DNA of 64,000 nt, from NCBI GenBank assembly GCA_030649025.1, contig JAUSGO010000004.1, positions 6,824 to 70,823 on the forward strand, given 5' to 3'. This document shows positions 280 to 62,723 of this stretch, in pieces. This stretch comes from a bacterium. Its GTDB lineage: Bacteria; Patescibacteriota; Minisyncoccia; JAUYLV01. The number at the start of each line of letters is the position of its first letter. The first letter of the stretch is position 1. The notes under the pieces are model-generated. The model was not told where the DNA came from, searched no databases, and was given only the letters and a program-made list of their open reading frames with translations. The position numbers and the translations under genes were made by a program.

Positions 280-519
280 TCAGACGGGGTCGTATCCTCC
301 TTGGGAGAACGGGTTACAGCGCATTATTCGCCAAGCGCTTCGCGCTATCCCTTTCAAAAAACCCTTTGTTTGTATCGCCTGCTTAGTGTACGTCGAGCAC
401 GACGGATAATATTTACACGACCCGCTCAAAAATGGCAACGAGATGATTCCGTGGTCCGGCGAGACGGTCTTTTGGTATAACTCAATAAGATTTGTTGCGG
501 TTTTTGAGAGTGTTCGCAT
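280..519 (-). CDS. yidD: membrane protein insertion efficiency factor YidD
   Basis: 79-aa ORF with a YidD-like C-terminal ...[13 protein letters not shown]. Overlaps the rnpA 3' end, as in the canonical rpmH-rnpA-yidD-yidC order. Confidence 0.8.
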
Positions 520-832
520 GATAAGTAAGCTCCTTTACTAAATCAAAAAAATCTGCGTCCTGGATGTTTTTTGAAGGAAAGATAAGCAGATCATATCCGA
601 AGAGGGCGGGCATACATTTCTTGACAACCTCCCTTGTTCTTCGTTTTATAGAGTTTCTTGTAACCGCCTTTTTTGCTTCTTTGGCGCTCACTATAACGGC
701 TATGCGAGGCGGCGCTATCCTTGTTGTTCTTGAAGCCTTCAGGCGGAAAAATCTTCCTCGGGTCTGCGTTCCTTTTTCCAACACAAAAAGAACGTCCTGT
801 CTCTTTTTCAACCTGTTAATGCCGGAGAGCAT
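482..832 (-). CDS. rnpA: RNase P protein component
   Basis: Internal Met of the 180-aa ORF: [21 protein letters not shown]...[27 protein letters not shown], the RnpA signature. 117 aa. Confidence 0.85.
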
Positions 833-849
833 AGAAGGCGGTTTCAGGA

Positions 850-987
850 CTACACAACTAACTTCTTTCTGTGTTTCCGGCGTCGTCTTTGCACCACCCG
901 TCTTCCGCCGGTACGTCGCATGCGTTTTAAAAACCCGTGTACACGACGCCTTCTGCGCTTCTTTGGTTTGTAGGTAAGGGCTAGCAT
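850..987 (-). CDS. rpmH: 50S ribosomal protein L34
   Basis: Not in the ORF track (45 aa). Reverse translation [45 protein letters not shown] matches the L34 consensus; 17 nt upstream of rnpA. Confidence 0.9.
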
Positions 988-1176
988 TCTTGTAAAGAAT
1001 ACATTCTTCGTGTATGCTCGTCAATAGTTAATTTTCATCCACAACTTCTGCACAGATGGGGATTATTTTTTAAGTTTTTTTCTGCGTGCTATACTACCTT
1101 CCGTTGTGTGAATTTATTTTCATTGTTATTGCCTGCGTTCTTCGCATGCATTATAAGATAATTTTTTCTCCTGCAT
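988..1176. promoter_or_regulatory. rpmH-dnaA divergent intergenic region; dnaA promoter with a DnaA-box-like TCATCCACA (about 1049-1057)
   Basis: Position between divergent rpmH and dnaA. One 8/9 match to TTATCCACA. Confidence 0.35.
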
Positions 1177-2791: not shown

Positions 2792-3889
2792 ATGAAATTT
2801 TCCTGCATCAGATCATATTTTCTAAACGCGGCAAGCTCCGTTGAAAGAATAATAGAAAAAAATAGCACGCTTCCCATTCTTCAAAATATTTTTATTAAAG
2901 TTGAAAAAGGGAAGACCACACTTTCCACGACAAACCTTGAAATAGGCATACATGCTTCATTCCAATCAAAAGCGGACGAGGAAGGATCTTTTACCGTTCC
3001 TGCAAAAACCCTATTGAATTTTCTTATGTATGTGGATACAGAAAAGATAACAGTCCACACAAAAGGAACAAATCTTATTATAAATGCCGGCTCTCATAAG
3101 GCGGACATTAAAGGACTTGACGCAACTAATTTTCCTATCATTCCTGAAATAACCGAAAGCTTTTCTACTTCTCTGCCTGCAGAAGAATTTTTTTCAGCTC
3201 TTTCTTCCCTAACTTTTCTTTCTTCAATGGGAGACCTGCGGCCGGAGCTTGCGGGAGTTTTTTGCAGTTTTGAAAAAAACCAACTGCGCATGGCTGCAAC
3301 AGACAGTTTTCGTCTCGGAGAATTTATTTTAAAAATCCCTACCCCAAAGAAAGAAACGACCTGTATTATACCTACGCGAACCGTAAACGAAATAATCCGC
3401 TTATTCACCGGGGCCGAAGCCGTTACCTTAAAACTAAGTGCCAATCAAATTCTCATCAAAACACAGGAAAAAGAGCTCATCTCCCGCCTCATCGAAGAAA
3501 AATACCCCGATTATACGGCAGTTATTCCGACATCAAGCACAACCAGAACATATCTTAAAAGGGAAGAGTTTATGCAGGCCTTGCGCGCCGCAAGCGTTTT
3601 TAGCGGAAAGACGCGTGAGGTAAAAATTAATATTTTTCCGGAAGAAAAAAAATATATTATAGAAAGCCGCAATGCCGACATAGGAGAACACAAAAGCGAA
3701 ATTTCTTGCGACGGAAACGGAAAAAACGTGACGGTATCGGTTAACTATCAGTATTTCCTTGATGCCCTCGGGAAGATTTCCGACGAAATGATTTCTTTTG
3801 AGAACAACAACGAAACAGACCCCATTCTTCTTAAGGGGCTTGCGGGCGCCGGACCAAGATATATTATTATGCCGTTGCGCTCGTATTAG
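2792..3889 (+). CDS. dnaN: DNA polymerase III beta sliding clamp
   Basis: 365 aa immediately after dnaA. N-terminus MKFSCIRSYFLNAASSVERIIEKNSTLPILQNIFIKVEKG is typical of DnaN. Confidence 0.95.
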   Translation: MKFSCIRSYFLNAASSVERIIEKNSTLPILQNIFIKVEKGKTTLSTTNLEIGIHASFQSKADEEGSFTVPAKTLLNFLMYVDTEKITVHTKGTNLIINAGSHKADIKGLDATNFPIIPEITESFSTSLPAEEFFSALSSLTFLSSMGDLRPELAGVFCSFEKNQLRMAATDSFRLGEFILKIPTPKKETTCIIPTRTVNEIIRLFTGAEAVTLKLSANQILIKTQEKELISRLIEEKYPDYTAVIPTSSTTRTYLKREEFMQALRAASVFSGKTREVKINIFPEEKKYIIESRNADIGEHKSEISCDGNGKNVTVSVNYQYFLDALGKISDEMISFENNNETDPILLKGLAGAGPRYIIMPLRSY

Positions 3890-15795: not shown

Positions 15796-16401
15796 ATGTC
15801 CGGTGACGCTTCCCAAAAAGAAAAAGAGCTTTACAGCAAATTCAAAAATGCCTATGAAGCACATGAAAAACGTGTATGGGAAATTGAAAAAATCATGGCC
15901 AGGCTTAGCCAGGCAAAAAAAGAAGGGAGAAAAGATCCAGAAAGAGAACGGCAGCGCGAGGAAGCTTCTGCTCTTGTCCAAAAAGAGCTTGACGTCATCC
16001 AGCGGCTTGTTTTAGAGGCAAAAGAAGCGCTGGGTTCGCCAAAAAGCTTTCTCGGCGAGTCGGTTGATGCGAACGGGCTTACCTCGACAATTAGAAAACT
16101 CATTGAGCGGGAAGCGATTGAAAAGGCTGACCTCGCGTTTCCCTACACATTTCGAACAGCTCTTCTTAACGCCTTTCTGGAACGCGAAAAGCAAACAAGG
16201 GCATCGATTTATAAAAAACATGTTCGTAAGGGGTTCGGAAGTTCCGTTGAGAGTCTTATAGAGGAAGAACAGCAGAAAAACGAAGCCTATAGAAAACAAC
16301 TCATGGATAAGTATCCGGACCTTCTATCCCCTAGTGATGTCGAGCTATTCAGCATGGCCTTTAAGCGCCGCATGGCTCGACATGGCGAAGAGGCCGTTTA
16401 A
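15796..16401 (+). CDS. hypothetical coiled-coil protein
   Basis: 201-aa ORF, charged and helical; no family recognised. Confidence 0.45.
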   Translation: MSGDASQKEKELYSKFKNAYEAHEKRVWEIEKIMARLSQAKKEGRKDPERERQREEASALVQKELDVIQRLVLEAKEALGSPKSFLGESVDANGLTSTIRKLIEREAIEKADLAFPYTFRTALLNAFLEREKQTRASIYKKHVRKGFGSSVESLIEEEQQKNEAYRKQLMDKYPDLLSPSDVELFSMAFKRRMARHGEEAV

Positions 16402-16487: not shown

Positions 16488-16541
16488 CAATAAATTGTTC
16501 CATGTGAAACGTTAGTGTGTTTTTCTATGAAACAGGGCCAC

Positions 16542-16559
16542 ATGTTTCATGGGAAACAT
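16542..16559. promoter_or_regulatory. palindromic operator-like site ATGTTTC-atgg-GAAACAT immediately upstream of the yraN start
   Basis: Perfect inverted repeat. The same 16-mer form TGTTTCATGRGAAACA recurs at 16986-17001. Confidence 0.5.
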
Positions 16560-16568
16560 TTTTTAATC

Positions 16569-16976
16569 ATGGATAGCCGTACGGAAATAGGCAGATCAGG
16601 AGAAGGTGCCGCATCAAGTTTTCTTATCAACAATAATTACCGCATCATCCACAGAAACTTCCACCTAGGAAGAATGGGGGAAATAGACATAATAGCAGAA
16701 AAAAGTGTTGGATTTTGGCCATTTTTAGAGAAAAGTCTAGTTTTTGTAGAAGTAAAAACGCTTGTCATAGGAAGTTTTAAGAAGGAATATGATCCAGAAA
16801 TGCGCGTAGACGGCAAAAAACAAGAAAGACTTATAAGATTGGCCAGTCTATACCTCTCTAAAAACAAGATTAAGGCGGACACGCCGTGGCAAATTGATGT
16901 AATTGCTGTTGAAATAGAAAGTTCCACGGGAAACATAAAAGAGATTCGTCATCATGAAAACGCTGTTCATTTATAG
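16569..16976 (+). CDS. yraN: YraN-family (UPF0102) endonuclease
   Basis: MDSRTEIGRSGEGAASSFLINNNYRIIHRNFHLGRMGEIDIIAEK...FVEVKT...PWQIDVIAVE. The start was chosen at the internal Met; the track ORF begins at 16515. Confidence 0.7.
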   Translation: MDSRTEIGRSGEGAASSFLINNNYRIIHRNFHLGRMGEIDIIAEKSVGFWPFLEKSLVFVEVKTLVIGSFKKEYDPEMRVDGKKQERLIRLASLYLSKNKIKADTPWQIDVIAVEIESSTGNIKEIRHHENAVHL

Positions 16977-18051: not shown

Positions 18052-18630
18052 ATGGCTGGTTGGTCAGGAATTTACACAAATGATCAGGAGGTTGCCAGAA
18101 GCCTTATTCGGCAACTTACTGAAATGGGGTTGGTGATAGAAAGCAGAGCGTCAACTGACCCGAGCATCTCACTTTGGAAGAACGGGGTCTGGTTTTGGCT
18201 GGATCTGCCGGGTTACTTCCATCCTCTTTCCAAGAAACTGTTTGAGCTTGCGCGCGACATTATGCAGCCGAGGGAAAAACAAGAAGTATACATAAGCCCG
18301 AAAGACCTGCAAAGTCAAAACGCCGACAAGTCACAGGAGGGCGCGGGAGCCGTGCTGGTCTATCAGGCTGCCAACAACACTACTGAAAGCGGGTTCTACG
18401 TTGAGTTCGCCGACGGGGCGGAAACCGAGGCCCACTTCTTTGAGAACCCAGAGGATAAATGCAGTGATGGCTCAAATGAGATTGCCGCAGAATACTTCCT
18501 GAAACGCCACAATCTGGAAATTCACACGGACTTTCCCGATAACTGGAGAGTCGTAGAAGATTATGAACTGACAGAAAAAGCTCTACAAGAAGTGGAAAGA
18601 GAACATAGTTCTATACCAGCGGCGCGATAA
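18052..18630 (+). CDS. hypothetical protein (192 aa) with canonical promoter and SD, flanked by 25-bp direct repeats
   Basis: ORF with strong translation signals; no family recognised. Confidence 0.5.
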   Translation: MAGWSGIYTNDQEVARSLIRQLTEMGLVIESRASTDPSISLWKNGVWFWLDLPGYFHPLSKKLFELARDIMQPREKQEVYISPKDLQSQNADKSQEGAGAVLVYQAANNTTESGFYVEFADGAETEAHFFENPEDKCSDGSNEIAAEYFLKRHNLEIHTDFPDNWRVVEDYELTEKALQEVEREHSSIPAAR

Positions 18631-19810: not shown

Positions 19811-22800
19811 TTAGGACGGGTCCATCAAAGCGCGCAAGCGGCAGAATTCGCAGTCTTTTTCATCGCACCGCCGGTTCCAGAATTTCAAGTGCGTGATTTC
19901 ATCGGCAACGCGCTCAATGGTCTCTATCAACTCTTTTTTTTCTGCTTCGGTAATCTCAAACAGCTCTCGCCGATACTTACCCCGCTCATCCGGCTCCAGA
20001 AAATCAATAATGCCGGCTTTCATGTGATATGTTTTTTCGGGCTTCAAATCGAGAAGTAATTTGTAGAATACAAGTTGTCGCTTATATTGGCCACTCCGCT
20101 TGTCCCGGGTTTTGCCTTCTATCCAATTGCGGCTCTGGGGTTGTTTGGTTTTGTAGTCCACTACAGCCACGCTTCTTCCGTCGGCATCCAGCTCCAACTT
20201 ATCAAGGTTTCCGGTAAGTTTGATGTCTTTACCGAGCAACACTCCCGGTACCCTGAATTCGTTTATGGTCTGGGCGCTCCATGTCTCGTGCCAGGCATCA
20301 AAGTACCCTCCGAGCGACACGCCTCCTTTTTTTATAAGCGCCTCTTTGTCGCGTCTGCCAAGAGCCTTGTGGGCCATGTCTTGTCGGAATGCATCGAGTA
20401 AAAAATTCTTGTTCGTGTCCTTTCCCTGATTTCTTGCGTCAAAAAACATCTGCAAAGCTTTGTGCGCAGCAATGCCATATATTTGGAGCGATGTCGGGGA
20501 GGAGAACCAGCGCAGCAAATTCTGATAAAAAAATCGCCACGGACACGACAGATAGTTATTGAGCGCTGTCGCATTCAGTCCTCGCTTCCTGAAAATTTCC
20601 GAGAAATATTCTCTTCCGGGTGCCGCAAGTTCGTGCGGTGGAGCCATAAACGCCTCTCTTCTCTCCGAGAATGCTTTTTCAAACTCATCTCCGGCGTGCG
20701 CCTCGCGCAGATTCTCCCGTATTTCTTCTATGAATTGGCTCGGGACAAGCTCTCTGCCATCGGAAGAGGTCTGGCTATAAGTAATACACGAGACGCGTTT
20801 TGCTCGGGTAAGCGCCATGTAAAAAAGCCTTCGCTCGTCCTCGTTTTTCTCCATTTCTGAAACGTCCGACACCGTCCGGAACGGAAGTTCAAAATATTTG
20901 CGCGACCGCTTATTGCCCCAGTGGCCGTCCGATGCCCCGACAATGAACACCGCTTCAAATTCCAGTCCCTTGGCTTTGTGCGCGGTCATCAGGCGCACCG
21001 CCTCCTCAAGACGCGCGCCGCGTTCTCTGATCGTAGCTCCATGCGAGCGTAGCACCTCCAGATATTCCATGAGATCGCGCAATGCGGCGTCCTGGTGGTT
21101 TTCGGATATCTTTTTTACTTCATCAAAAAACGCGCCGACAGCTTCCATGTTTTTGGCATAATTGCCGTGTTTGAGTGCGTGCTCGAGAAATCCGGACTCA
21201 CGCATGAGCCTGGAGATGAATTTCGCAAGTTCCTCGTTCTCGCTCTGTTGTTTCCAGCGTGCCAATTTCTCGTACAAATCTTTGATTTTTGCCGGTTCGC
21301 GAACGCCAAGCATATCCAAATTCTCTGATCCAGAAACCAGCATCCAAAGCGATACGCGCTTCTCGTCATCCGTGGCGCGGATGAGTCGGTAGATATCCAT
21401 GGGGTCGAGTGCCAAAAAATCAATGTGTAGAATTCGTGCCAGCGCCTCGTCTTCTCCAAAGCGCCAGATCGCATTGCATAAGGCCACGAGTTTCATGATA
21501 AGGCGATTGGCCAGCACGTTTCGGTCCGACTCGATGACAAAAGGTATGTTTTGCGCGGCAAAAAAATCGGCGATGGGCAGCGCATCCCTATTCTCGCGAT
21601 ATAGTATCCCCATATTCTTCCAGGGAACGCCTTGGGAAAAGAGCTCCTTTACACGTCCGGCAAGAAAAAGAAGTTCTGCCTCCGGCAACGAGAACTTCCA
21701 GACCTGTACAAGATCCTTCCCCTTTTTTTCTGCCGCCTGAAGCGAGCCTCGCCTTAGAGGGCGGGCGGCTCGCAGGGGGAGCGACAGCACCGCTTTGTTC
21801 TTTTCTATGAGCGATTGCGCCGAATCCAGGATGGTCTGCGTAGAGCGGTAATTTTCTTCCAGTGAAATGAACTTTGCATCCGCGTATTTATTCTTAAAGT
21901 AAAGAAAATTGTCGAGCGATGCTCCCTGGAACCGGAAAATCGCCTGCTTTTCATCTCCCACCACAAAGAGGTTCGGGTTCGGATAGAAACTTGCCAAAAG
22001 CTCGAGCACTTTGTTCTGGGCACCGTTGGTATCCTGATGCTCGTCAACGAGGATATACTGATAACGTTCCTGCAGTTCTAGCAGAAAATTCTTGTCCGAC
22101 TCCATGGCCTTTATGGTTTCCAGGATCATGTCGTCGAAATCATACAACTTCCGCGTCCGCAGCACTTCCTGATACCGGACGTATATTTCGGAAAGCTCTT
22201 TGTTCCGGTTCAGCTTTTCCAGCCGTCTTTGTGCCGAACCCTTCATTTCATTCTTGTATTTCCCTTTGGTGTGGTGCAGATCGTCGCGCGACTCAAACTC
22301 CTCTTTCTCCCTTTTTACCAATTCGGCAAACGCGTCGAGACCGAATCCTTCTCGCTTGATGTCTTTGATGGCCTTGAGAATTTCCGGTACATAGTAGAAT
22401 TTCTCCGCGAACGGCCGGAGGTTCGTCCAAGAACCTTCTTCGATGATAGCGCGCAGGATGGCCATGGCATCGGCGGGCATGCAGTGTCTGCCGCCCATAA
22501 TAGCCGGATATTTTTCCGGATATTGCTGGATAAGCGCGTTGCAAAACCCATGGAACGTTCCGATGCGGACGTAATAGCCGCGGCTGCCGATAAGCGCAAC
22601 AAGCCTGCGGCGCATGTTCGCGGAAGCAGCTTCGGTGAAGGTGAGCGCCAGGATCGCTTCGGCGGGCGTGTCGGTGCGGGCTAAAATATTGGCAATGCGG
22701 AGCGTCAAGATCTGTGTTTTGCCAGTACCGGGTCCGGCGACAACCATGACGGGTCCTTCAATGTTTTCCACCGCCTCGCGTTGCCGGGGATTTAGTTTTT

Positions 22801-22870
22801 GCATCTCCGTTTCAAAGGGGGTCATGTTGTCGGATGTTACACCTCTCTCCATAGTAGTATAGAGCAGCAA
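19811..22870 (-). CDS. UvrD/PcrA-type SF1 helicase fused to a C-terminal Cas4/AddB-like PD-(D/E)xK nuclease with a 4-Cys Fe-S site
   Basis: N-terminal LNPRQREAV...VVAGPGTGKTQ (Walker A) and UvrD motifs. C-terminal CPWRFF first-Cys motif, VVDYKT nuclease core, terminal C-x4-C-x2-C (RRCDEKDCEFC). 1019 aa. Confidence 0.85.
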   Translation of the reverse strand: MLLYTTMERGVTSDNMTPFETEMQKLNPRQREAVENIEGPVMVVAGPGTGKTQILTLRIANILARTDTPAEAILALTFTEAASANMRRRLVALIGSRGYYVRIGTFHGFCNALIQQYPEKYPAIMGGRHCMPADAMAILRAIIEEGSWTNLRPFAEKFYYVPEILKAIKDIKREGFGLDAFAELVKREKEEFESRDDLHHTKGKYKNEMKGSAQRRLEKLNRNKELSEIYVRYQEVLRTRKLYDFDDMILETIKAMESDKNFLLELQERYQYILVDEHQDTNGAQNKVLELLASFYPNPNLFVVGDEKQAIFRFQGASLDNFLYFKNKYADAKFISLEENYRSTQTILDSAQSLIEKNKAVLSLPLRAARPLRRGSLQAAEKKGKDLVQVWKFSLPEAELLFLAGRVKELFSQGVPWKNMGILYRENRDALPIADFFAAQNIPFVIESDRNVLANRLIMKLVALCNAIWRFGEDEALARILHIDFLALDPMDIYRLIRATDDEKRVSLWMLVSGSENLDMLGVREPAKIKDLYEKLARWKQQSENEELAKFISRLMRESGFLEHALKHGNYAKNMEAVGAFFDEVKKISENHQDAALRDLMEYLEVLRSHGATIRERGARLEEAVRLMTAHKAKGLEFEAVFIVGASDGHWGNKRSRKYFELPFRTVSDVSEMEKNEDERRLFYMALTRAKRVSCITYSQTSSDGRELVPSQFIEEIRENLREAHAGDEFEKAFSERREAFMAPPHELAAPGREYFSEIFRKRGLNATALNNYLSCPWRFFYQNLLRWFSSPTSLQIYGIAAHKALQMFFDARNQGKDTNKNFLLDAFRQDMAHKALGRRDKEALIKKGGVSLGGYFDAWHETWSAQTINEFRVPGVLLGKDIKLTGNLDKLELDADGRSVAVVDYKTKQPQSRNWIEGKTRDKRSGQYKRQLVFYKLLLDLKPEKTYHMKAGIIDFLEPDERGKYRRELFEITEAEKKELIETIERVADEITHLKFWNRRCDEKDCEFCRLRALMDPS

Positions 22871-22910
22871 AAAGAAAAATACGCTGCAATTTGTGCAACG
22901 TATGTTCGAG

Positions 22911-24191
22911 TTAAGACGGCTTCACGATAACCGTTACGAATTTTTCTGGTTTCAGCGTTTGCGCGCGAAGCGCCTCGACCTCTTCAAGAGTGATAGAAGA
23001 GATAATTTTGCGTTGTCGCGGGAAGTAGCGCTCCAAACTTTTGAGCGGCCAGTGTTTTTGTGCTGTGCCAAGAATATGTCCTGACCAGTCTTCCAGTTTC
23101 TCCGGCGTGAGCATATGCAGGTCGTCAAGCGACTCCTGTACTTCCTCGAAAGTGCTTTGATCTTGCAGGGGCGTAAAGACCGAGCTCTCAATAAGTTCCC
23201 GGACCGTATCAATGCGCGAAGAGAGGGTTTCCACATAGGCCGCGAAATAGTAGCCAAGCGGATGGGCGCCCGATATTCCGCCCCATAACGCATATGCAAA
23301 ACCTCTTTTCTCTCGCACCTCGTTCCATAACCGCGACGTCTGGCCGCTCACCAAAAGCCGCATCAAGAACGTTGACATCTGACGCGTCCGCTCGTTCTTG
23401 AAGATGGGAAACTTGCAACCAAAAAGCAGGGTTGCCTTTTCGCTTTTAGGCCGCTCAATAACAACCTCCTGCTTTTCGGGCAGCACTCCGTACTCGTCGT
23501 TCCATGCATTGTGCAGCACGTGCCCGCGTGGCAGAGCAAGGTGTTTTTCCAGTAGCGAGAGGACCTGGTCGTGGCGGACGTCCCCGATGGCAAGCGCGAT
23601 GGTGTTTTTCGGGACAAACCACTTCGCCTTCTCGCGCAGAAGATCTTCCCTGGTAACATTCTGGACTCCTGAGGGCGAGCCTACGCCATGAATGCGCAGA
23701 GGATTTTCCCGCCAGAGCTCCTTCCAGAGCGCAATGTAGGCGAGGTAGTTGTCTTCGTCGTGGTCGCGCGCTATCTCATTGAGCACGACCTCTTTTTCTC
23801 TTTCAACCTCTTCGACGGGGAATCGGGAGTTGCAGTAGATATCGCACATCAGATCACACAAGAGCGGAAATTTTCTTGCGATCGCTTCTCCCTCAAATCC
23901 TATCTCAATGTGCCCGGTATGGGCATTGCGCTCAAGTAAATTCCGTCGAATGAAGGAGTTAATATCCGCAATGCTTCTTCTGGCAGTTCCTTTGAACGCC
24001 ATATGTTCAAAATAATGGAAAAGCCCTTTTTTGCCGGGTGGGTCATAAGCAGACCCTACTCCCGCGACCAGTTCTAGATGCGTTTTTTTTGAAGGAACGC
24101 GGCAGGAGATGATGCGCAGGCCGTCATCACGAACCGTTTCTTGGATTTTCATGAACCACCCCCGTATGCTTGCCAGCCCAGTATGGACCAT
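22911..24191 (-). CDS. M16-family (pitrilysin/insulinase-like) zinc peptidase
   Basis: Inverted zinc motif HYFEHMAFKGT (HxxEH). The start may be the internal MKIQETV. Confidence 0.8.
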   Translation of the reverse strand: MVHTGLASIRGWFMKIQETVRDDGLRIISCRVPSKKTHLELVAGVGSAYDPPGKKGLFHYFEHMAFKGTARRSIADINSFIRRNLLERNAHTGHIEIGFEGEAIARKFPLLCDLMCDIYCNSRFPVEEVEREKEVVLNEIARDHDEDNYLAYIALWKELWRENPLRIHGVGSPSGVQNVTREDLLREKAKWFVPKNTIALAIGDVRHDQVLSLLEKHLALPRGHVLHNAWNDEYGVLPEKQEVVIERPKSEKATLLFGCKFPIFKNERTRQMSTFLMRLLVSGQTSRLWNEVREKRGFAYALWGGISGAHPLGYYFAAYVETLSSRIDTVRELIESSVFTPLQDQSTFEEVQESLDDLHMLTPEKLEDWSGHILGTAQKHWPLKSLERYFPRQRKIISSITLEEVEALRAQTLKPEKFVTVIVKPS

Positions 24192-25655: not shown

Positions 25656-26759
25656 TCAGAATTGTGTGATGATGAGCACCCAGTCGTTCACGTACTCGTC
25701 ACGCAGTGTTCCGTTGGCGTCCTTTGTGGCACGGATAGCAAACACCTTCCAGGTGTTCTTAATGTGTTCCATGAGTAGGCGGTTGAATGTTTCGTCTCCC
25801 GGACTTGAGAAGATGTGCGTGTCTTCAATGTTGCCGCCCAGTGAGACCTTCAGAGCAAAATACATCGTTTTCCCTCGAAATTTTCGAATAGCTCTGTTTA
25901 GCTCCCGGTTTTGTGTATCGGCCGGAGGATCAGGACGGCTGAAAACAAAAGCTCTTGTGTCGCTTCTGCCTCTTCCGAAACCCGCGCCGATGCCGCCGCC
26001 CTCTCCACCGCCCGTCCCGCCGCCGCTGCCGGGGCCGTAACCGCCGCCGCTGCCGGGGCCTATGCCCGTCCCAGTGCCCGCGCCGATACCACCCGCAGAT
26101 CCCTCGCCATCGGAAGTGGGATTGGGTATGGGGGCCATGGCATCTCCCACAGTATCGGGAAGTGCGGGAATGGGAATTTGTGATGCGTCAATTGAGCCCT
26201 GCAAAGAAGGAGGTTCGGGAATATCCGGATCTATATTCGGCGATGCAACGGAAGGCACGACAATCTGCGCCCGCTTAATGTCGGGAAGTTTTCCGGCAGA
26301 GGGCGGCTTGGGAGAATTTTTCCCTCCGCCTCCGCCGCCTCCGCCAATATCCGTCGAATCCATTTTTGGCATGTAAAGCAGGATGTACGGCGGACGGGTT
26401 TCGGCAACCATCGGTCTTTTTTGGGTCTTGCGGCCCATGAGCATCGCCAAGAGCACGACAATGGTTATGGTCATCGGATAGACCAAGCAAGTCGTTGCAA
26501 GCTGCGCTACCCATCTGTGACGGTTTTCTTTTTCTACCTGGACGACAAGATTTGTCGTCGGTTCGCAAATGCCCAGCGTGATAATGCAGGTGTTTCGATG
26601 TATATTCGTGTTTTCAAGTAGCCGCTCGACACTTCTCAAGGAAGCACGATCGGCTAAGTTTCGCATTATTTTGAGAAACACCGATGCGCCCTCCTTGTGA
26701 GATTGATGTGGATGTCGCATATCGTAGCACCATAACCGGCTATTGACAAGTTTTTCCAT
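25656..26759 (-). CDS. membrane-anchored Gly/Pro-rich protein with a TonB-C-like C-terminal domain (hypothetical)
   Basis: TM segment LVYPMTITIVVLLAMLMG, poly-Gly and Pro-rich low-complexity tracts, and a C-terminal ~90 aa loosely TonB-C-like. Start uncertain. Confidence 0.45.
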   Translation of the reverse strand: MEKLVNSRLWCYDMRHPHQSHKEGASVFLKIMRNLADRASLRSVERLLENTNIHRNTCIITLGICEPTTNLVVQVEKENRHRWVAQLATTCLVYPMTITIVVLLAMLMGRKTQKRPMVAETRPPYILLYMPKMDSTDIGGGGGGGGKNSPKPPSAGKLPDIKRAQIVVPSVASPNIDPDIPEPPSLQGSIDASQIPIPALPDTVGDAMAPIPNPTSDGEGSAGGIGAGTGTGIGPGSGGGYGPGSGGGTGGGEGGGIGAGFGRGRSDTRAFVFSRPDPPADTQNRELNRAIRKFRGKTMYFALKVSLGGNIEDTHIFSSPGDETFNRLLMEHIKNTWKVFAIRATKDANGTLRDEYVNDWVLIITQF

Positions 26760-39668: not shown

Positions 39669-40289
39669 ATGAAGAAACTTTATTGGCACTTCAGTTTTTT
39701 CGGCATAGCGGCCTTAATTTTTGGCGGCATTGCCACCGCAGAAACCTGGAAGAGCACATATCTCGCCGTTACGATGATCGGCACCGGCACGTTGCTCTTT
39801 ATCGCGGTCTGCTACAAGGACGATCCTGGCTACCACAAAATGCTTGCAGTCTACGACGAAAAGGGGATATTCCTGGGTTTTGAAAATGGCCCCGTCTGGC
39901 TCGGATTGTCCCATAGGCGACGCGTAGTTCCGATAGTCACCGGCGCATTTCTTAGCTCCGGATTTAAGTATGTGACCGAGAACCCCCGCATCACGCAGTT
40001 CCGGTACAATGTCAAGGTGGTTCCGAAAGATCTCTCTGAAAAGACAGCTCGACTTCTGGAGGCTCGCTTCGGAGTGGATTTTCCCGAAGCACTCATGGAA
40101 AGGCATATCGAACAATGCCTCTTCGAGCTCAACAGCGATTTCACGAAAGAAGAGTACCAGCGCTTCAGGAAACCCCATGTAGAAGCGGAAGAGTTGGCGT
40201 TCCAGAATTTCATGCAAGGGAGGCTCGACCCCATACTTGCGGAAGTGGGATTACGGATTGCCGATGCCAGATTTTCCATTTCTTTTTAA
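39669..40289 (+). CDS. hypothetical membrane protein
   Basis: 206 aa with two N-terminal TM helices; no family. Confidence 0.45.
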   Translation: MKKLYWHFSFFGIAALIFGGIATAETWKSTYLAVTMIGTGTLLFIAVCYKDDPGYHKMLAVYDEKGIFLGFENGPVWLGLSHRRRVVPIVTGAFLSSGFKYVTENPRITQFRYNVKVVPKDLSEKTARLLEARFGVDFPEALMERHIEQCLFELNSDFTKEEYQRFRKPHVEAEELAFQNFMQGRLDPILAEVGLRIADARFSISF

Positions 40290-58962: not shown

Positions 58963-59700
58963 ATGCAAAACGTCTTTTTTGATACGGCCAAAACCTTCTT
59001 GCTGGACCTTCTTTTTCCCGTCGAATGCTTTGGGTGCGGCATAGCCGGTACGTATCTTTGCGCGCCGTGCTTTGCGAAGCTTCCCCTGCAAGAATTATTT
59101 ATCTGTCCGGTGTGTGAGAAGCCCTCGTTTGAACATGCGGTCTGCGTCGAATGTACCAAAAGAACGAAGCTCGACGGCCTTATTGCCGCATCGTTTTATG
59201 ACATAGCGCTCCTGCGCCGCCTCATCTTTGCCTATAAATATAAATTCGTAAAGCCGCTCGCCCTTCCTCTTTCACAGCTTATAGTAAAGTGCCTGACCCT
59301 GCACAACCATTCGCTTTTTCACAGAAACGACCTTGTACTTGTTCCCGTGCCGCTTTCCAAAAGACGTGAGCGCTGGCGCGGCTTTAATCAGGCGCGCGAG
59401 ATTGCCGTGTTGCTTGGGAAGGCTCTGCAAATTTCTCTTTGCGATAACGCGCTTTTCCGAACGCGGAATACCGTGCCGCAAATAGAGGCAGTGTCGCGCA
59501 AAGAACGCTTTGAGAACATTCGCGGTGCATTCAAGGTCGCCGACCCCCTCCAGATTAAAAATAAAACCATCCTGCTTGTGGATGATGTGGCCACATCTCT
59601 TGCAACGCTCAATGAATGTGCCCGCGTTCTAAAGGGGGCCGGCGCAAAAGAGGTATGGGGCATTGTGGTCGCAAGAGAGTATGTTAAGAAGGAGAATTAA
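58963..59700 (+). CDS. ComF-family phosphoribosyltransferase
   Basis: N-terminal double CxxC zinc finger plus PRTase motif ILLVDDVATSLATL. Confidence 0.8.
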   Translation: MQNVFFDTAKTFLLDLLFPVECFGCGIAGTYLCAPCFAKLPLQELFICPVCEKPSFEHAVCVECTKRTKLDGLIAASFYDIALLRRLIFAYKYKFVKPLALPLSQLIVKCLTLHNHSLFHRNDLVLVPVPLSKRRERWRGFNQAREIAVLLGKALQISLCDNALFRTRNTVPQIEAVSRKERFENIRGAFKVADPLQIKNKTILLVDDVATSLATLNECARVLKGAGAKEVWGIVVAREYVKKEN

Positions 59701-61477: not shown

Positions 61478-62127
61478 TTCTTTTTTAGATCGTTAAAAAG
61501 GCGTATAAGTTCTTGCGGAGACACGGGGCCGACGCGGACCATCTTTGGTTCATTTCCCGTAATGTCTATAACGGTTGAGGCAGGACTTGGACGGAGCGTG
61601 CCCGCATCCACAATAAGATCGGGAAGATGTTTTTTATTTTTAAATTGGGCGCGAAGGGCCCTGATATCGGAAACGGGAGGCTCGCCGGAAATATTTGCGG
61701 AAGTTGTTGTTAGAGGAAAGTCGATGCGTGAAAAAAGCATTTCAAGAAAATCGTTTTTAAAACAGCGAAGACCAATGGGCCCGCCGCCAGTAAGGATATC
61801 CGGCGCCACAGATCGTTTTGGCAAAATGACCGTGACGGCTCCCGGCCAGACACGTGCCAGGAATTTTTCAGCAACCGCCGAGACAACTGCGATGCGGCGC
61901 GCCATTGCGACATCTTTTACTGCAACAGAGATGGGTTTTTGCTTTACGCGTTCTTTAATGAGGAAAACTTTTTCTATTGCCCGCTCATCAAGCGCGTTGG
62001 TGCCAAGTCCGTACACGGTATCTGTGGGGTACACCATGACGCCGCCTTGCCCCAGAATCTCCGACGCCAATTGGACGGCCCGCTCGACGCTTCGCGGATT
62101 CTGAAGGTCAAGATGAATATTTTTCAT
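61474..62127 (-). CDS. tsaC: L-threonylcarbamoyladenylate synthase (TsaC/YrdC/Sua5 family)
   Basis: VMVYPTDTVYGLGTNALDERAIEKVFLIKER. Confidence 0.85.
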   Translation of the reverse strand: MKNIHLDLQNPRSVERAVQLASEILGQGGVMVYPTDTVYGLGTNALDERAIEKVFLIKERVKQKPISVAVKDVAMARRIAVVSAVAEKFLARVWPGAVTVILPKRSVAPDILTGGGPIGLRCFKNDFLEMLFSRIDFPLTTTSANISGEPPVSDIRALRAQFKNKKHLPDLIVDAGTLRPSPASTVIDITGNEPKMVRVGPVSPQELIRLFNDLKKK

Positions 62128-62723
62128 GATGATGCGCGCATGGTCCCGCCACCCATTTTTTGTTCGAAATAGGAAGCGTATTCTGAAAAAAAATTACGTC
62201 GATCCGGATGCCGAGTTGCGAGATATTTGAAGTTGAGGGCGAATTGATCTAACAGGAAACTGGTTTCCGCTTCCGGTTTTTGAAAATACGTATGAGGTTT
62301 ATCGCCGCTATTATAATGTTCAAGCGCCATTTTCCATTTTTCCGGATTTCCGCCGGAAAGCAATGCGCGCGGCATAGGATCCACATAGAGAGGCCTCCCC
62401 CTTTCATCATAAAGCTTCTCTACGATAGGCATGCGCGCGATGCTTGCAAGCTTTGCCTGCCGAATATCGGAATCTCTAGCAAATGATAGCTGGATGGCTA
62501 TTTGTTTTCCGTTTTTCAGTGTAACGACCAGGTCGATAAGCTCATGGTCCTCCGTTCTCGTTCCGCTTCTTACCTCTCGAAACAGGTCTTGTCCGGCGTA
62601 TGCTAAAAATTCTCTGAACACCGGTTCGAGCTCCTTGCCGAGCTTCTCCTGCTCGGCCCTTCTTTGTTCGAAGTCGATACGACGCACATAAAGATCTTCG
62701 ATTGCGGAGGCACGCATAGCCAT
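62124..62723 (-). CDS. hypothetical protein, first gene of a three-gene operon with tsaC and glyA
   Basis: 199-aa ORF with 4-nt overlaps to the downstream genes. Confidence 0.45.
   Translation of the reverse strand: MAMRASAIEDLYVRRIDFEQRRAEQEKLGKELEPVFREFLAYAGQDLFREVRSGTRTEDHELIDLVVTLKNGKQIAIQLSFARDSDIRQAKLASIARMPIVEKLYDERGRPLYVDPMPRALLSGGNPEKWKMALEHYNSGDKPHTYFQKPEAETSFLLDQFALNFKYLATRHPDRRNFFSEYASYFEQKMGGGTMRASS

Follow-up and report, generated by a model that had tools for sequence, protein, structure and literature searches.

Proteins in which a UvrD-like superfamily 1 helicase is fused with a Cas4-like nuclease form the largest branch of the PF12705 nuclease family and are present in many bacteria and mesophilic archaea, with both halves being monophyletic (Hudaiberdiev et al., 2017; PMC5704561). 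In that survey the fusions were often located beside type III restriction-modification systems, Dcm/Vsr pairs or WYL regulators, or stood alone, and an ancillary role in unwinding and cleavage, like that of RecB and AddB, was predicted for them; Candidate Phyla Radiation (CPR) bacteria come up only under solo-Cas4 proteins (PMC5704561). One protein of this kind, ZomB, encoded in the element ICESp23FST81 of Streptococcus pneumoniae, has UvrD-like helicase and Cas4-like iron-sulfur (Fe-S) nuclease domains and was purified in 2022 as an ATP-dependent nuclease (PMC9453066). In the helicase-nuclease AdnAB, translocation is driven by AdnB, and the nuclease of AdnA contains the Fe-S cluster, which is on the 5' strand's path at the fork junction (PMC8789073). 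Here we analyze a gene encoding a fusion of this type in a stretch of 64,000 nucleotides from contig JAUSGO010000004.1 of a Patescibacteria genome (the whole stretch is referred to as the window). We read its product, with a confidence that we would place about midway between doubt and conviction, as an ATP-dependent helicase-nuclease that works alone as a single chain and that represents the UvrD-Cas4-like proteins on chromosomes throughout Patescibacteria; it would act in DNA repair, plausibly in end resection, and perhaps also in roles of the UvrD/PcrA type.

The elements on which this reading is based are listed below. Residues are numbered as in the 1019-residue translation that opens at a TTG codon, and conservation is given for two sets of sequences, a first family alignment of 27 sequences and a wider set of 84 species-level homologues.

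19811 to 22825, minus strand: helicase-nuclease gene from its likeliest start, the ATG at 22825 (1004 codons plus stop; the mechanical open reading frame reaches the TTG at 22870)
21884 to 22795, minus strand: N-terminal half of the superfamily 1A (SF1A) helicase, Pfam UvrD-helicase, residues 26-329 (E 2e-64)
22715 to 22735, minus strand: Walker A motif GPGTGKT, residues 46-52 (motif read in the sequence)
22028 to 22045, minus strand: helicase motif DEHQDT, residues 276-281 (motif read in the sequence)
20771 to 21868, minus strand: C-terminal half of the SF1A helicase, Pfam UvrD_C, residues 335-700, with the 2B region and motifs V and VI (TAHKAKG, TRAK) (E 3.8e-37)
19829 to 20578, minus strand: C-terminal PD-(D/E)XK nuclease of the Cas4/AddB/AdnA type, Pfam PDDEXK_1, residues 765-1014 (E 6.2e-22)
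20528 to 20545, minus strand: CPWRFF, residues 776-781, with C776 as first cysteine ligand of the predicted Fe-S cluster (invariant in 27 of 27 sequences)
20150 to 20203, minus strand: catalytic core of the nuclease, from D890 of motif II (GNLDKLE) to D905-Y-K907 of motif III (kept in 84 of 84 homologues)
20063 to 20077, minus strand: QLVFY, the Q-x3-Y motif IV of RecB/Cas4-type nucleases, with Q932 and Y936 (kept in 84 of 84 homologues)
19841 to 19867, minus strand: CDEKDCEFC, i.e. C1002-x4-C1007-x2-C1010, three C-terminal cysteines predicted to be ligands of the Fe-S cluster (invariant in the 27-sequence alignment)

Judged by its motifs, the SF1A UvrD/PcrA-like motor is complete, with all those for ATPase activity and translocation intact; besides the ones listed, VGDEKQ and NYRS could be read in the N-terminal half. 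Its best sequence match in the PDB is PcrA (1pjr, E 1.5e-68), and the full-length AlphaFold (AF2) model, with a mean predicted local distance difference test score (pLDDT) of 84 and a predicted template modelling score (pTM) of 0.73, found PcrA and UvrD as its best folds in Foldseek, with E values of around 1e-35 to 1e-32 and 24-28% identity (1.6e-35 for 1pjr, with 26-28% identity for the best matches). The helicase core is thus closest to PcrA, UvrD and Rep and has all SF1A motifs, but the protein differs from these helicases in the nuclease domain of some 270 residues that follows the motor and in its scores with the NCBIfam models, which are around one third of the equivalog cut-offs. PcrA was the top-scoring model (333.7 bits versus a cut-off of 911), UvrD and Rep gave 262.8 versus 1144 and 272 versus 951 bits, respectively, the RecB model has a cut-off of 696, and no equivalog threshold was reached.

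With respect to the nuclease, PDDEXK_1 gave a single match in the protein, with a score of 79.2 bits versus a gathering score of 22. The Pfam model Cas_Cas4 (PF01930) stayed just under its threshold (21.1 versus 22.7 bits) and the Cas4 model TIGR00372 reached 32.5 bits versus a cut-off of 65; with these scores and no cas genes among the annotated open reading frames of the 64-kb window, a CRISPR Cas4 was discarded. When the domain was modelled alone, the residues past the helicase (around 270) folded as a single domain with a pLDDT of 93 and a pTM of 0.90. The nearest solved fold was the nuclease of AdnA (Foldseek E 3.8e-7, TM score 0.60), followed by the Cas4-family protein ACE1 and AddB, and then by RecE, Exo5, type I-C Cas4 and Dna2. 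The nuclease domains of Cas4, ACE1, Exo5 and Dna2, which have in common with ours the PD-(D/E)XK fold with a cysteine staple, were matched with E values between 7e-7 and 2e-4, and the cluster-free nucleases of AddA and RecB appeared lower in the ranking (7e-4 and 2e-3). In Dna2 the nuclease is joined to an SF1B helicase and the order of the domains is the opposite. Searching the PDB sequences with the single nuclease-domain sequence (phmmer) gave no meaningful match, and with a family profile of the domain only AdnA was matched, with an E value of around 0.01; the profile alignment of motifs II and III sets D905 on D934, the catalytic residue of AdnA and the one changed in the D934A structures. 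The assignment as a Cas4/AddB-type Fe-S nuclease is supported by the fold, the active site and the pattern of cysteines, with metal binding as a prediction.

A previous reading of this DNA made from the letters alone (the sequence-only reading) had described the protein as a complete SF1A UvrD/PcrA helicase followed by a C-terminal PD-(D/E)xK nuclease, with the first cysteine in CPWRFF and a terminal C-x4-C-x2-C. The two Pfam matches of the motor (2e-64 and 4e-37) and the presence of all its motifs, the PDDEXK_1 match (6e-22) and the confident single-domain model, and the location of the cysteine motifs at residues 776-781 and 1002-1010 bear out this description, and the D/E-x-K triad on which it depended is present and invariant as D890 and D905-Y-K907. 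Its length of 1019 residues does not hold so well. The uninterrupted minus-strand open reading frame spans 19811-22870 and gives 1019 residues if read from the TTG at 22870. However, this TTG directly abuts a terminator-like hairpin (22903-22879), the N-termini of the homologues line up with the ATG at 22825 in the family alignment, and the GenBank entry MDO8557709.1, which is 100% identical to the protein of the window, also has 1004 residues. Since the TTG is located right behind the hairpin, and the homologues and the GenBank model begin at the ATG, the start at 22825 is preferred and the protein most likely has 1004 residues.

The genes for AdnAB, an obligate heterodimer, are adjacent, as addA and addB normally are. 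Each of its subunits consists of a UvrD-like motor and a C-terminal RecB-family nuclease, and the Fe-S nuclease of AdnA is the best match of the window's nuclease both in sequence and in fold, including the alignment with D934 mentioned above. The overall identity is 16-20%, and the arrangement is different: in AdnAB the Fe-S nuclease is on the non-driving subunit AdnA and the driving motor AdnB has another nuclease (PMC8789073), whereas in the protein described here, which has no partner nearby, a single chain contains both an intact motor and an Fe-S-type nuclease. AddA is similar in having an SF1A motor and a C-terminal nuclease (full-length fold match with a TM score of around 0.55), and AddB in having an Fe-S stapled nuclease of the same fold. 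The nuclease of AddA is devoid of an Fe-S cluster and the motor of AddB is degenerate. Thus, from the AddB/AdnA type our protein has the stapled nuclease, but neither the degenerate or dispensable motor nor the adjacent obligate partner. An ordinary AddA was rejected as identity of the protein in view of the Fe-S-type (AddB/AdnA) nuclease, the lack of a partner gene nearby and the low scores with AddA models (TIGR02784, 160.8 versus 860.75 bits; TIGR02785, 137.9 versus 707.65 bits); the AddB model TIGR02773 gave 31 bits versus a cut-off of 904. The sequence-only reading had also set the protein apart from AddA, which agrees with these values (138-161 versus 708-861 bits) and with a nuclease fold nearer to AdnA, ACE1 and AddB than to AddA and RecB, and had noted that no AddB/RecC-like partner is adjacent. 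This is indeed the case: the neighbours are genes for an M16 peptidase and a chagasin-like protein, and there is no AddB/RecC-like gene in the 64-kb window, nor a partner within 10 kb in 85 related loci.

The UvrD-Cas4 fusions (PF00580, PF13361 and PF12705) have the same domain order, an intact motor, a PF12705-type nuclease and four cysteines, and there is end-to-end homology between the protein of the window and fusions from outside Patescibacteria, with 30% identity in Hymenobacter and 28% in two IMG/VR contigs (L088 and L102). The published members were mostly noted beside type III restriction-modification, Dcm/Vsr and WYL genes and interpreted as linked to defence, whereas the Patescibacteria clade is chromosomal, has housekeeping surroundings and is often found behind dnaG-rpoD; the comparison is one of architecture. 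ZomB, compared by its description and not by its sequence, indicates that such a single-chain fusion can act without a partner subunit. It differs in having two Cas4-like domains in tandem, versus one in our protein, in being located on a conjugative element, versus the chromosomal core, and in its effect on pneumolysin transcription.

The family is large. More than 7900 homologues were found in the protein database at E ≤ 1e-10, and the nuclease domain alone matched 1455 clusters at 50% identity with the same threshold. Almost all of the best 120 protein homologues have around 1000 residues and an identical Pfam architecture, and those with a taxon name are from Patescibacteria/Parcubacteria metagenome-assembled genomes, where they are labelled 'ATP-dependent DNA helicase' or 'PcrA' (the Joint Genome Institute, JGI, annotates homologues as 'DNA helicase II / PcrA'). 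In a collection of species-representative genomes, at least 593 loci encode a relative, and the best 80 of these are almost all labelled as Patescibacteria (Paceibacteria, Nomura-, Kaiser-, Taylor-, Woese- and Roizmanbacteria, and 'Saccharibacteria'). Helicase motifs, nuclease residues and the four cysteines are all invariant in the 27-sequence alignment; this invariance and the number of homologues put the set of motifs far beyond chance. In the wider set the helicase motifs were kept in 84 of 84 homologues (83 for Walker A, owing to one alignment gap), as were the nuclease D, D-x-K and Q-x3-Y. The cysteine ligands were kept in just 72-79 of the 84, with Cys at the position of C776 in 72 and at the three C-terminal positions in 75-79, which indicates that the active site is under stricter constraint than the ligands of the cluster. 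The protein of the window has all four (C776, C1002, C1007 and C1010).

The homologues that depart from this pattern form a cysteine-loss subclade (L033, L041, L068, L070-L073, L077, L079, L082, L084 and L085), where the first cysteine is replaced by Ser, Asp or Asn, and often the third one as well (patterns SCSC, SITE, NESA, DP-R), while all the catalytic residues of the nuclease and the helicase motifs are retained. To judge by these alignments, some lineages of the family seem to have lost the Fe-S cluster. Five homologues with 39-40% identity (L021, L046, L049, L052 and L083) are on contigs labelled as Methanosarcinales, Pseudomonadales or Gammaproteobacteria, all of them third party annotation (TPA) assemblies; these are probably mis-binned or mislabelled Patescibacteria contigs, with horizontal transfer as a possible alternative.

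The sequence-only reading had considered the combination of a UvrD helicase and an Fe-S Cas4-type nuclease in one chain to be notable. This has to be toned down, since the combination was described in 2017 (PMC5704561), ZomB has been purified (PMC9453066), GenBank contains the identical protein and at least 593 species-level genomes have a member of the clade. The architecture is not new, with comparative-genomic and biochemical precedents and the protein itself already deposited. A modest novelty may reside in the existence of a very large Patescibacteria-wide clade with an active motor and an Fe-S-type nuclease, in its dnaG-rpoD-linked housekeeping position and in the cysteine-loss subclade.

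Genomic context was analyzed in 85 related loci of around 20 kb each, which amount to around 1.5 Mb of Patescibacteria DNA, a sample too limited for a firm conclusion on whole genomes; the window covers only 64 kb of the host genome. No second UvrD-like or Cas4-like gene is present within 10 kb in the 85 loci, nor was one found in the window with tblastn searches using each half of the protein, so that in both the gene stands alone. According to the clustering of neighbours and Pfam searches on representatives, synteny is kept in about a third of the genomes: directly upstream and on the same strand are dnaG (27 of 84) and rpoD (30 of 84), with rpoB-rpoC farther upstream, and immediately downstream, in convergent orientation, there is a gene for a membrane-anchored DsbA-like thioredoxin (31 of 84), followed by one for a predicted 3'-5' exonuclease of 190 residues, of the DEDD/RNase_H_2/DNA_pol_B_exo2 type (27 of 84), and then by hisS and uppP. 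Loci with the dnaG-rpoD order include L008, L050, L051, L082 and L084. The predicted exonuclease could be a functional partner or merely syntenic. Overall, these surroundings are a housekeeping neighbourhood, not a defence island, and suggest vertical inheritance, and the gene is probably a vertically inherited housekeeping gene.

The closest structural relatives of the nuclease, AdnA, AddB, Cas4, Exo5 and Dna2, are 5'-strand or 5'->3' nucleases. By analogy, in the proposed end resection the motor would load on a DNA end or a nick and move 3'->5' along one strand, as PcrA and UvrD do, while the Fe-S nuclease would degrade the displaced 5'-terminated strand, leaving a 3' single-stranded tail as product for RecA. 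The end resection that in other bacteria is handled by RecBCD, AddAB or AdnAB would in this way be the task of a single polypeptide, which might form a homodimer; and, as these small genomes also have in it their UvrD/PcrA-like helicase, the protein may in addition fill housekeeping roles of the UvrD/PcrA type. Resection of double-strand-break ends was one of the two roles suggested in the sequence-only reading, and is a plausible one. The proposal is in line with reports on the biology of the group, where CPR bacteria, and specifically Roizmanbacteria, have been described as devoid of RecBCD (PMC6509639), and Patescibacteria as keeping homologous recombination genes and natural competence (PMC12455944). 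A Roizmanbacteria-labelled contig (L045) carries the helicase-nuclease gene.

Several observations weigh against this proposal. Around 12 of the 84 homologues have lost at least one cysteine ligand, which argues that the Fe-S cluster is dispensable for the function of the family. The full-length model could not be rigidly superposed on AddA, AdnA or RecB (root mean square deviation of 17-34 Å), and distant members of the wider family are found in defence contexts (BREX-1, or WYL and McrBC). A general link with nucleotide excision repair was discarded: L005 is the only locus where the gene is between uvrB and uvrA, with GIY-YIG, nth and dinB nearby, and UvrB was found in 2 and UvrA in 1 of the 85 loci. 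Finally, what is proposed on the strand polarity of the nuclease, the substrate for loading and the oligomeric state is taken from the relatives.

Among the alternatives, the one that survives best is that the protein is the functional UvrD/PcrA of Patescibacteria, with the nuclease as a mere accessory for trimming a displaced oligonucleotide or flap. Its tasks would be strand removal in nucleotide excision repair, mismatch repair, the clearing of RecA or RNA polymerase, and help for replication in passing transcription units. In favour of this possibility are PcrA and UvrD as the top matches of the motor in sequence and fold and the name given to the homologues by JGI. The position immediately behind dnaG-rpoD, which about one in three genomes has, is also in favour as a replication and transcription context (gene order being weak evidence), and so is the one genome where uvrB and uvrA flank the gene and dinB and nth are close to it. 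However, no PcrA, UvrD or Rep equivalog cut-off is reached (334 versus 911 bits for PcrA), and the uvrA/uvrB neighbourhood is not general, as indicated above. PcrA and UvrD have a C-terminal domain or extension behind the motor, and our protein has in this place the nuclease, whose active site is kept in all 84 homologues and would hence be central rather than accessory. We consider this explanation possible, if somewhat unlikely; it is compatible with the end-resection proposal, and the two are not mutually exclusive.

A function in defence against plasmids or phages, as proposed for the UvrD-Cas4 fusions located beside restriction-modification systems, was also put forward in the sequence-only reading. 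The association of such fusions with type III restriction-modification, Dcm/Vsr and WYL regulators in the published analysis of the family (PMC5704561) points in this direction, and so do the surroundings of two full-length homologues with 28-30% identity. One of them (L086), annotated as an 'ATP-dependent DNA helicase' of 1065 residues in the Hymenobacter plasmid NZ_CP095057.1, is colinear with our protein (30% identity over around 1000 residues, E 2e-132), with matching Pfam architecture and likewise a C-x4-C-x2-C, and its gene has a BREX-1 system on one side and, on the other, a sigma-54-dependent regulator, behind which comes umuDC. The other, of 1021 residues and 28% identity, is in IMGVR_UViG_3300020048_006163 (L088), flanked by a WYL/helix-turn-helix regulator and McrBC; the homologue in L102 is likewise full-length, with 28% identity. 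In L001, a Dcm-Vsr pair is located 8-10 kb from the helicase-nuclease gene. Nevertheless, the neighbours in the window are genes for the M16 peptidase, MurJ, NusA and the chagasin-like inhibitor, and tRNA genes, and those kept across the 84 relatives are dnaG, rpoD and the genes for the DsbA-like protein, hisS and uppP. The clade is broad and its synteny is kept, unlike the patchy islands typical of defence genes. PADLOC gave nothing but generic UvrD-type helicase models (GajB/DRT), which are not diagnostic of any defence system, and there is no GajA-like partner among the annotated neighbours that would make the protein part of a Gabija system. No close relative was found in phage genomes or plasmid collections, nor among 2.9 million viral contigs of IMG/VR, where identity was at most 31%. 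For this clade, the housekeeping surroundings and the lack of close viral or plasmid relatives do not favour a role in defence, which we regard as improbable.

The least plausible alternative, which we consider very improbable, is that the protein makes up a two-subunit helicase-nuclease, in the manner of AddA, AdnA or AdnB, together with a partner encoded elsewhere in the genome: AddA, AdnA and AdnB share with it the UvrD-like motor followed by a RecB-family nuclease, and AdnA is the best PDB sequence match of the nuclease profile, but no second gene of either type is close to it in the 85 loci or in the window, the AddA and AddB models are far under their cut-offs, and AddAB and AdnAB have the Fe-S nuclease on the subunit with an inactive or dispensable motor (AdnA: PMC8789073), whereas here all motor motifs are intact.

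The end-resection proposal can be taken one step further, to a protein that would be, across Patescibacteria, both the sole UvrD/PcrA-family helicase and the sole enzyme for the resection of double-strand breaks, a minimal monomeric or homodimeric counterpart of AdnAB and AddAB with an active 3'->5' motor and an Fe-S 5'-strand nuclease in one chain. We consider this extended version doubtful. If it is true, the protein might resemble the ancestral state behind the heterodimeric machines, and the cysteine-loss subclade would represent a case where the Fe-S staple has been dispensed with in nature. If the role proposed for the protein is correct, Patescibacteria, with their very small genomes, the reported absence of RecBCD and the reported natural competence, would process DNA ends with one protein of around 1000 residues instead of the two or three subunits of RecBCD, AddAB or AdnAB. 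It would also provide a compact model for an SF1A motor coupled to an Fe-S nuclease and would fill a gap in the reconstruction of repair pathways in a very large uncultured radiation, where the current labels say no more than 'ATP-dependent DNA helicase' or 'PcrA'. As the architecture is known, the value would be in lineage biology and annotation and not in a new principle.

A further case related to the fusion is found in the plasmid of Hymenobacter sp. DG25B (NZ_CP010055.1, 5656-8900; L087), where two adjacent genes encode an 'ATP-dependent helicase' of 599 residues and a 'PD-(D/E)XK nuclease family protein' of 458 residues. Judging from the annotation, they may correspond to a split version or to a frameshifted copy of the fusion.

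In the window, the M16 peptidase gene (22911-24191) is upstream of the helicase-nuclease gene and on the same strand, and the chagasin-like inhibitor is on the other side. Between the peptidase and the helicase-nuclease genes is the hairpin mentioned in relation to the start codon:

22879 to 22903, minus strand: terminator-like hairpin with a T-run (pattern match only)

Terminator-like sites are no more numerous in this region than expected from shuffled sequences. Also near the gene are murJ, nusA, ddl, genes for NUDIX and YraN proteins and the tRNA-Val and tRNA-Gly genes, and the rest of the window corresponds to core chromosome, with rnpA, dnaA, dnaN, fusA, rpsL, rpsG, lepA and tuf, the S10/spc cluster of ribosomal protein genes, secY, adk, map, tpiA, pgk, glyA and tsaC. 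No recA, recBCD, addAB or recFOR, nor any recognisable defence genes, are present in these 64 kb.

The genes rnpA (482-1024, minus strand), dnaA (1177-2571) and dnaN (2792-3889) are marks of an origin region, and the minimum of the cumulative GC skew and the switch in gene orientation are found only at around 10-11 kb of the window. A scan for DnaA boxes over the 64 kb showed no cluster (17 matches with one mismatch versus 10.6 expected), and the origin was not located. Between 11147 and 15552 there are a thiolase-like gene, an overlapping open reading frame of 372 codons without significant Pfam match, and a gene for an AMP-binding enzyme similar to acetyl-CoA synthetases. These may constitute an acyl-CoA module, and in so reduced a genome this would be unusual. 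Five open reading frames of 192-367 codons had no Pfam match at the thresholds used (15796-16401, 18052-18630, 25656-26759, 39669-40289 and 62124-62723) and are candidates for lineage-specific proteins, or else are not genes. The YraN/UPF0102 protein is encoded at 16515-16976; we take this family to be one of small predicted endonucleases of the PD-(D/E)XK type. Lastly, a ComFC-like protein with a double zinc ribbon and a phosphoribosyltransferase domain is encoded at 58963-59700, which fits the natural competence reported for Patescibacteria.

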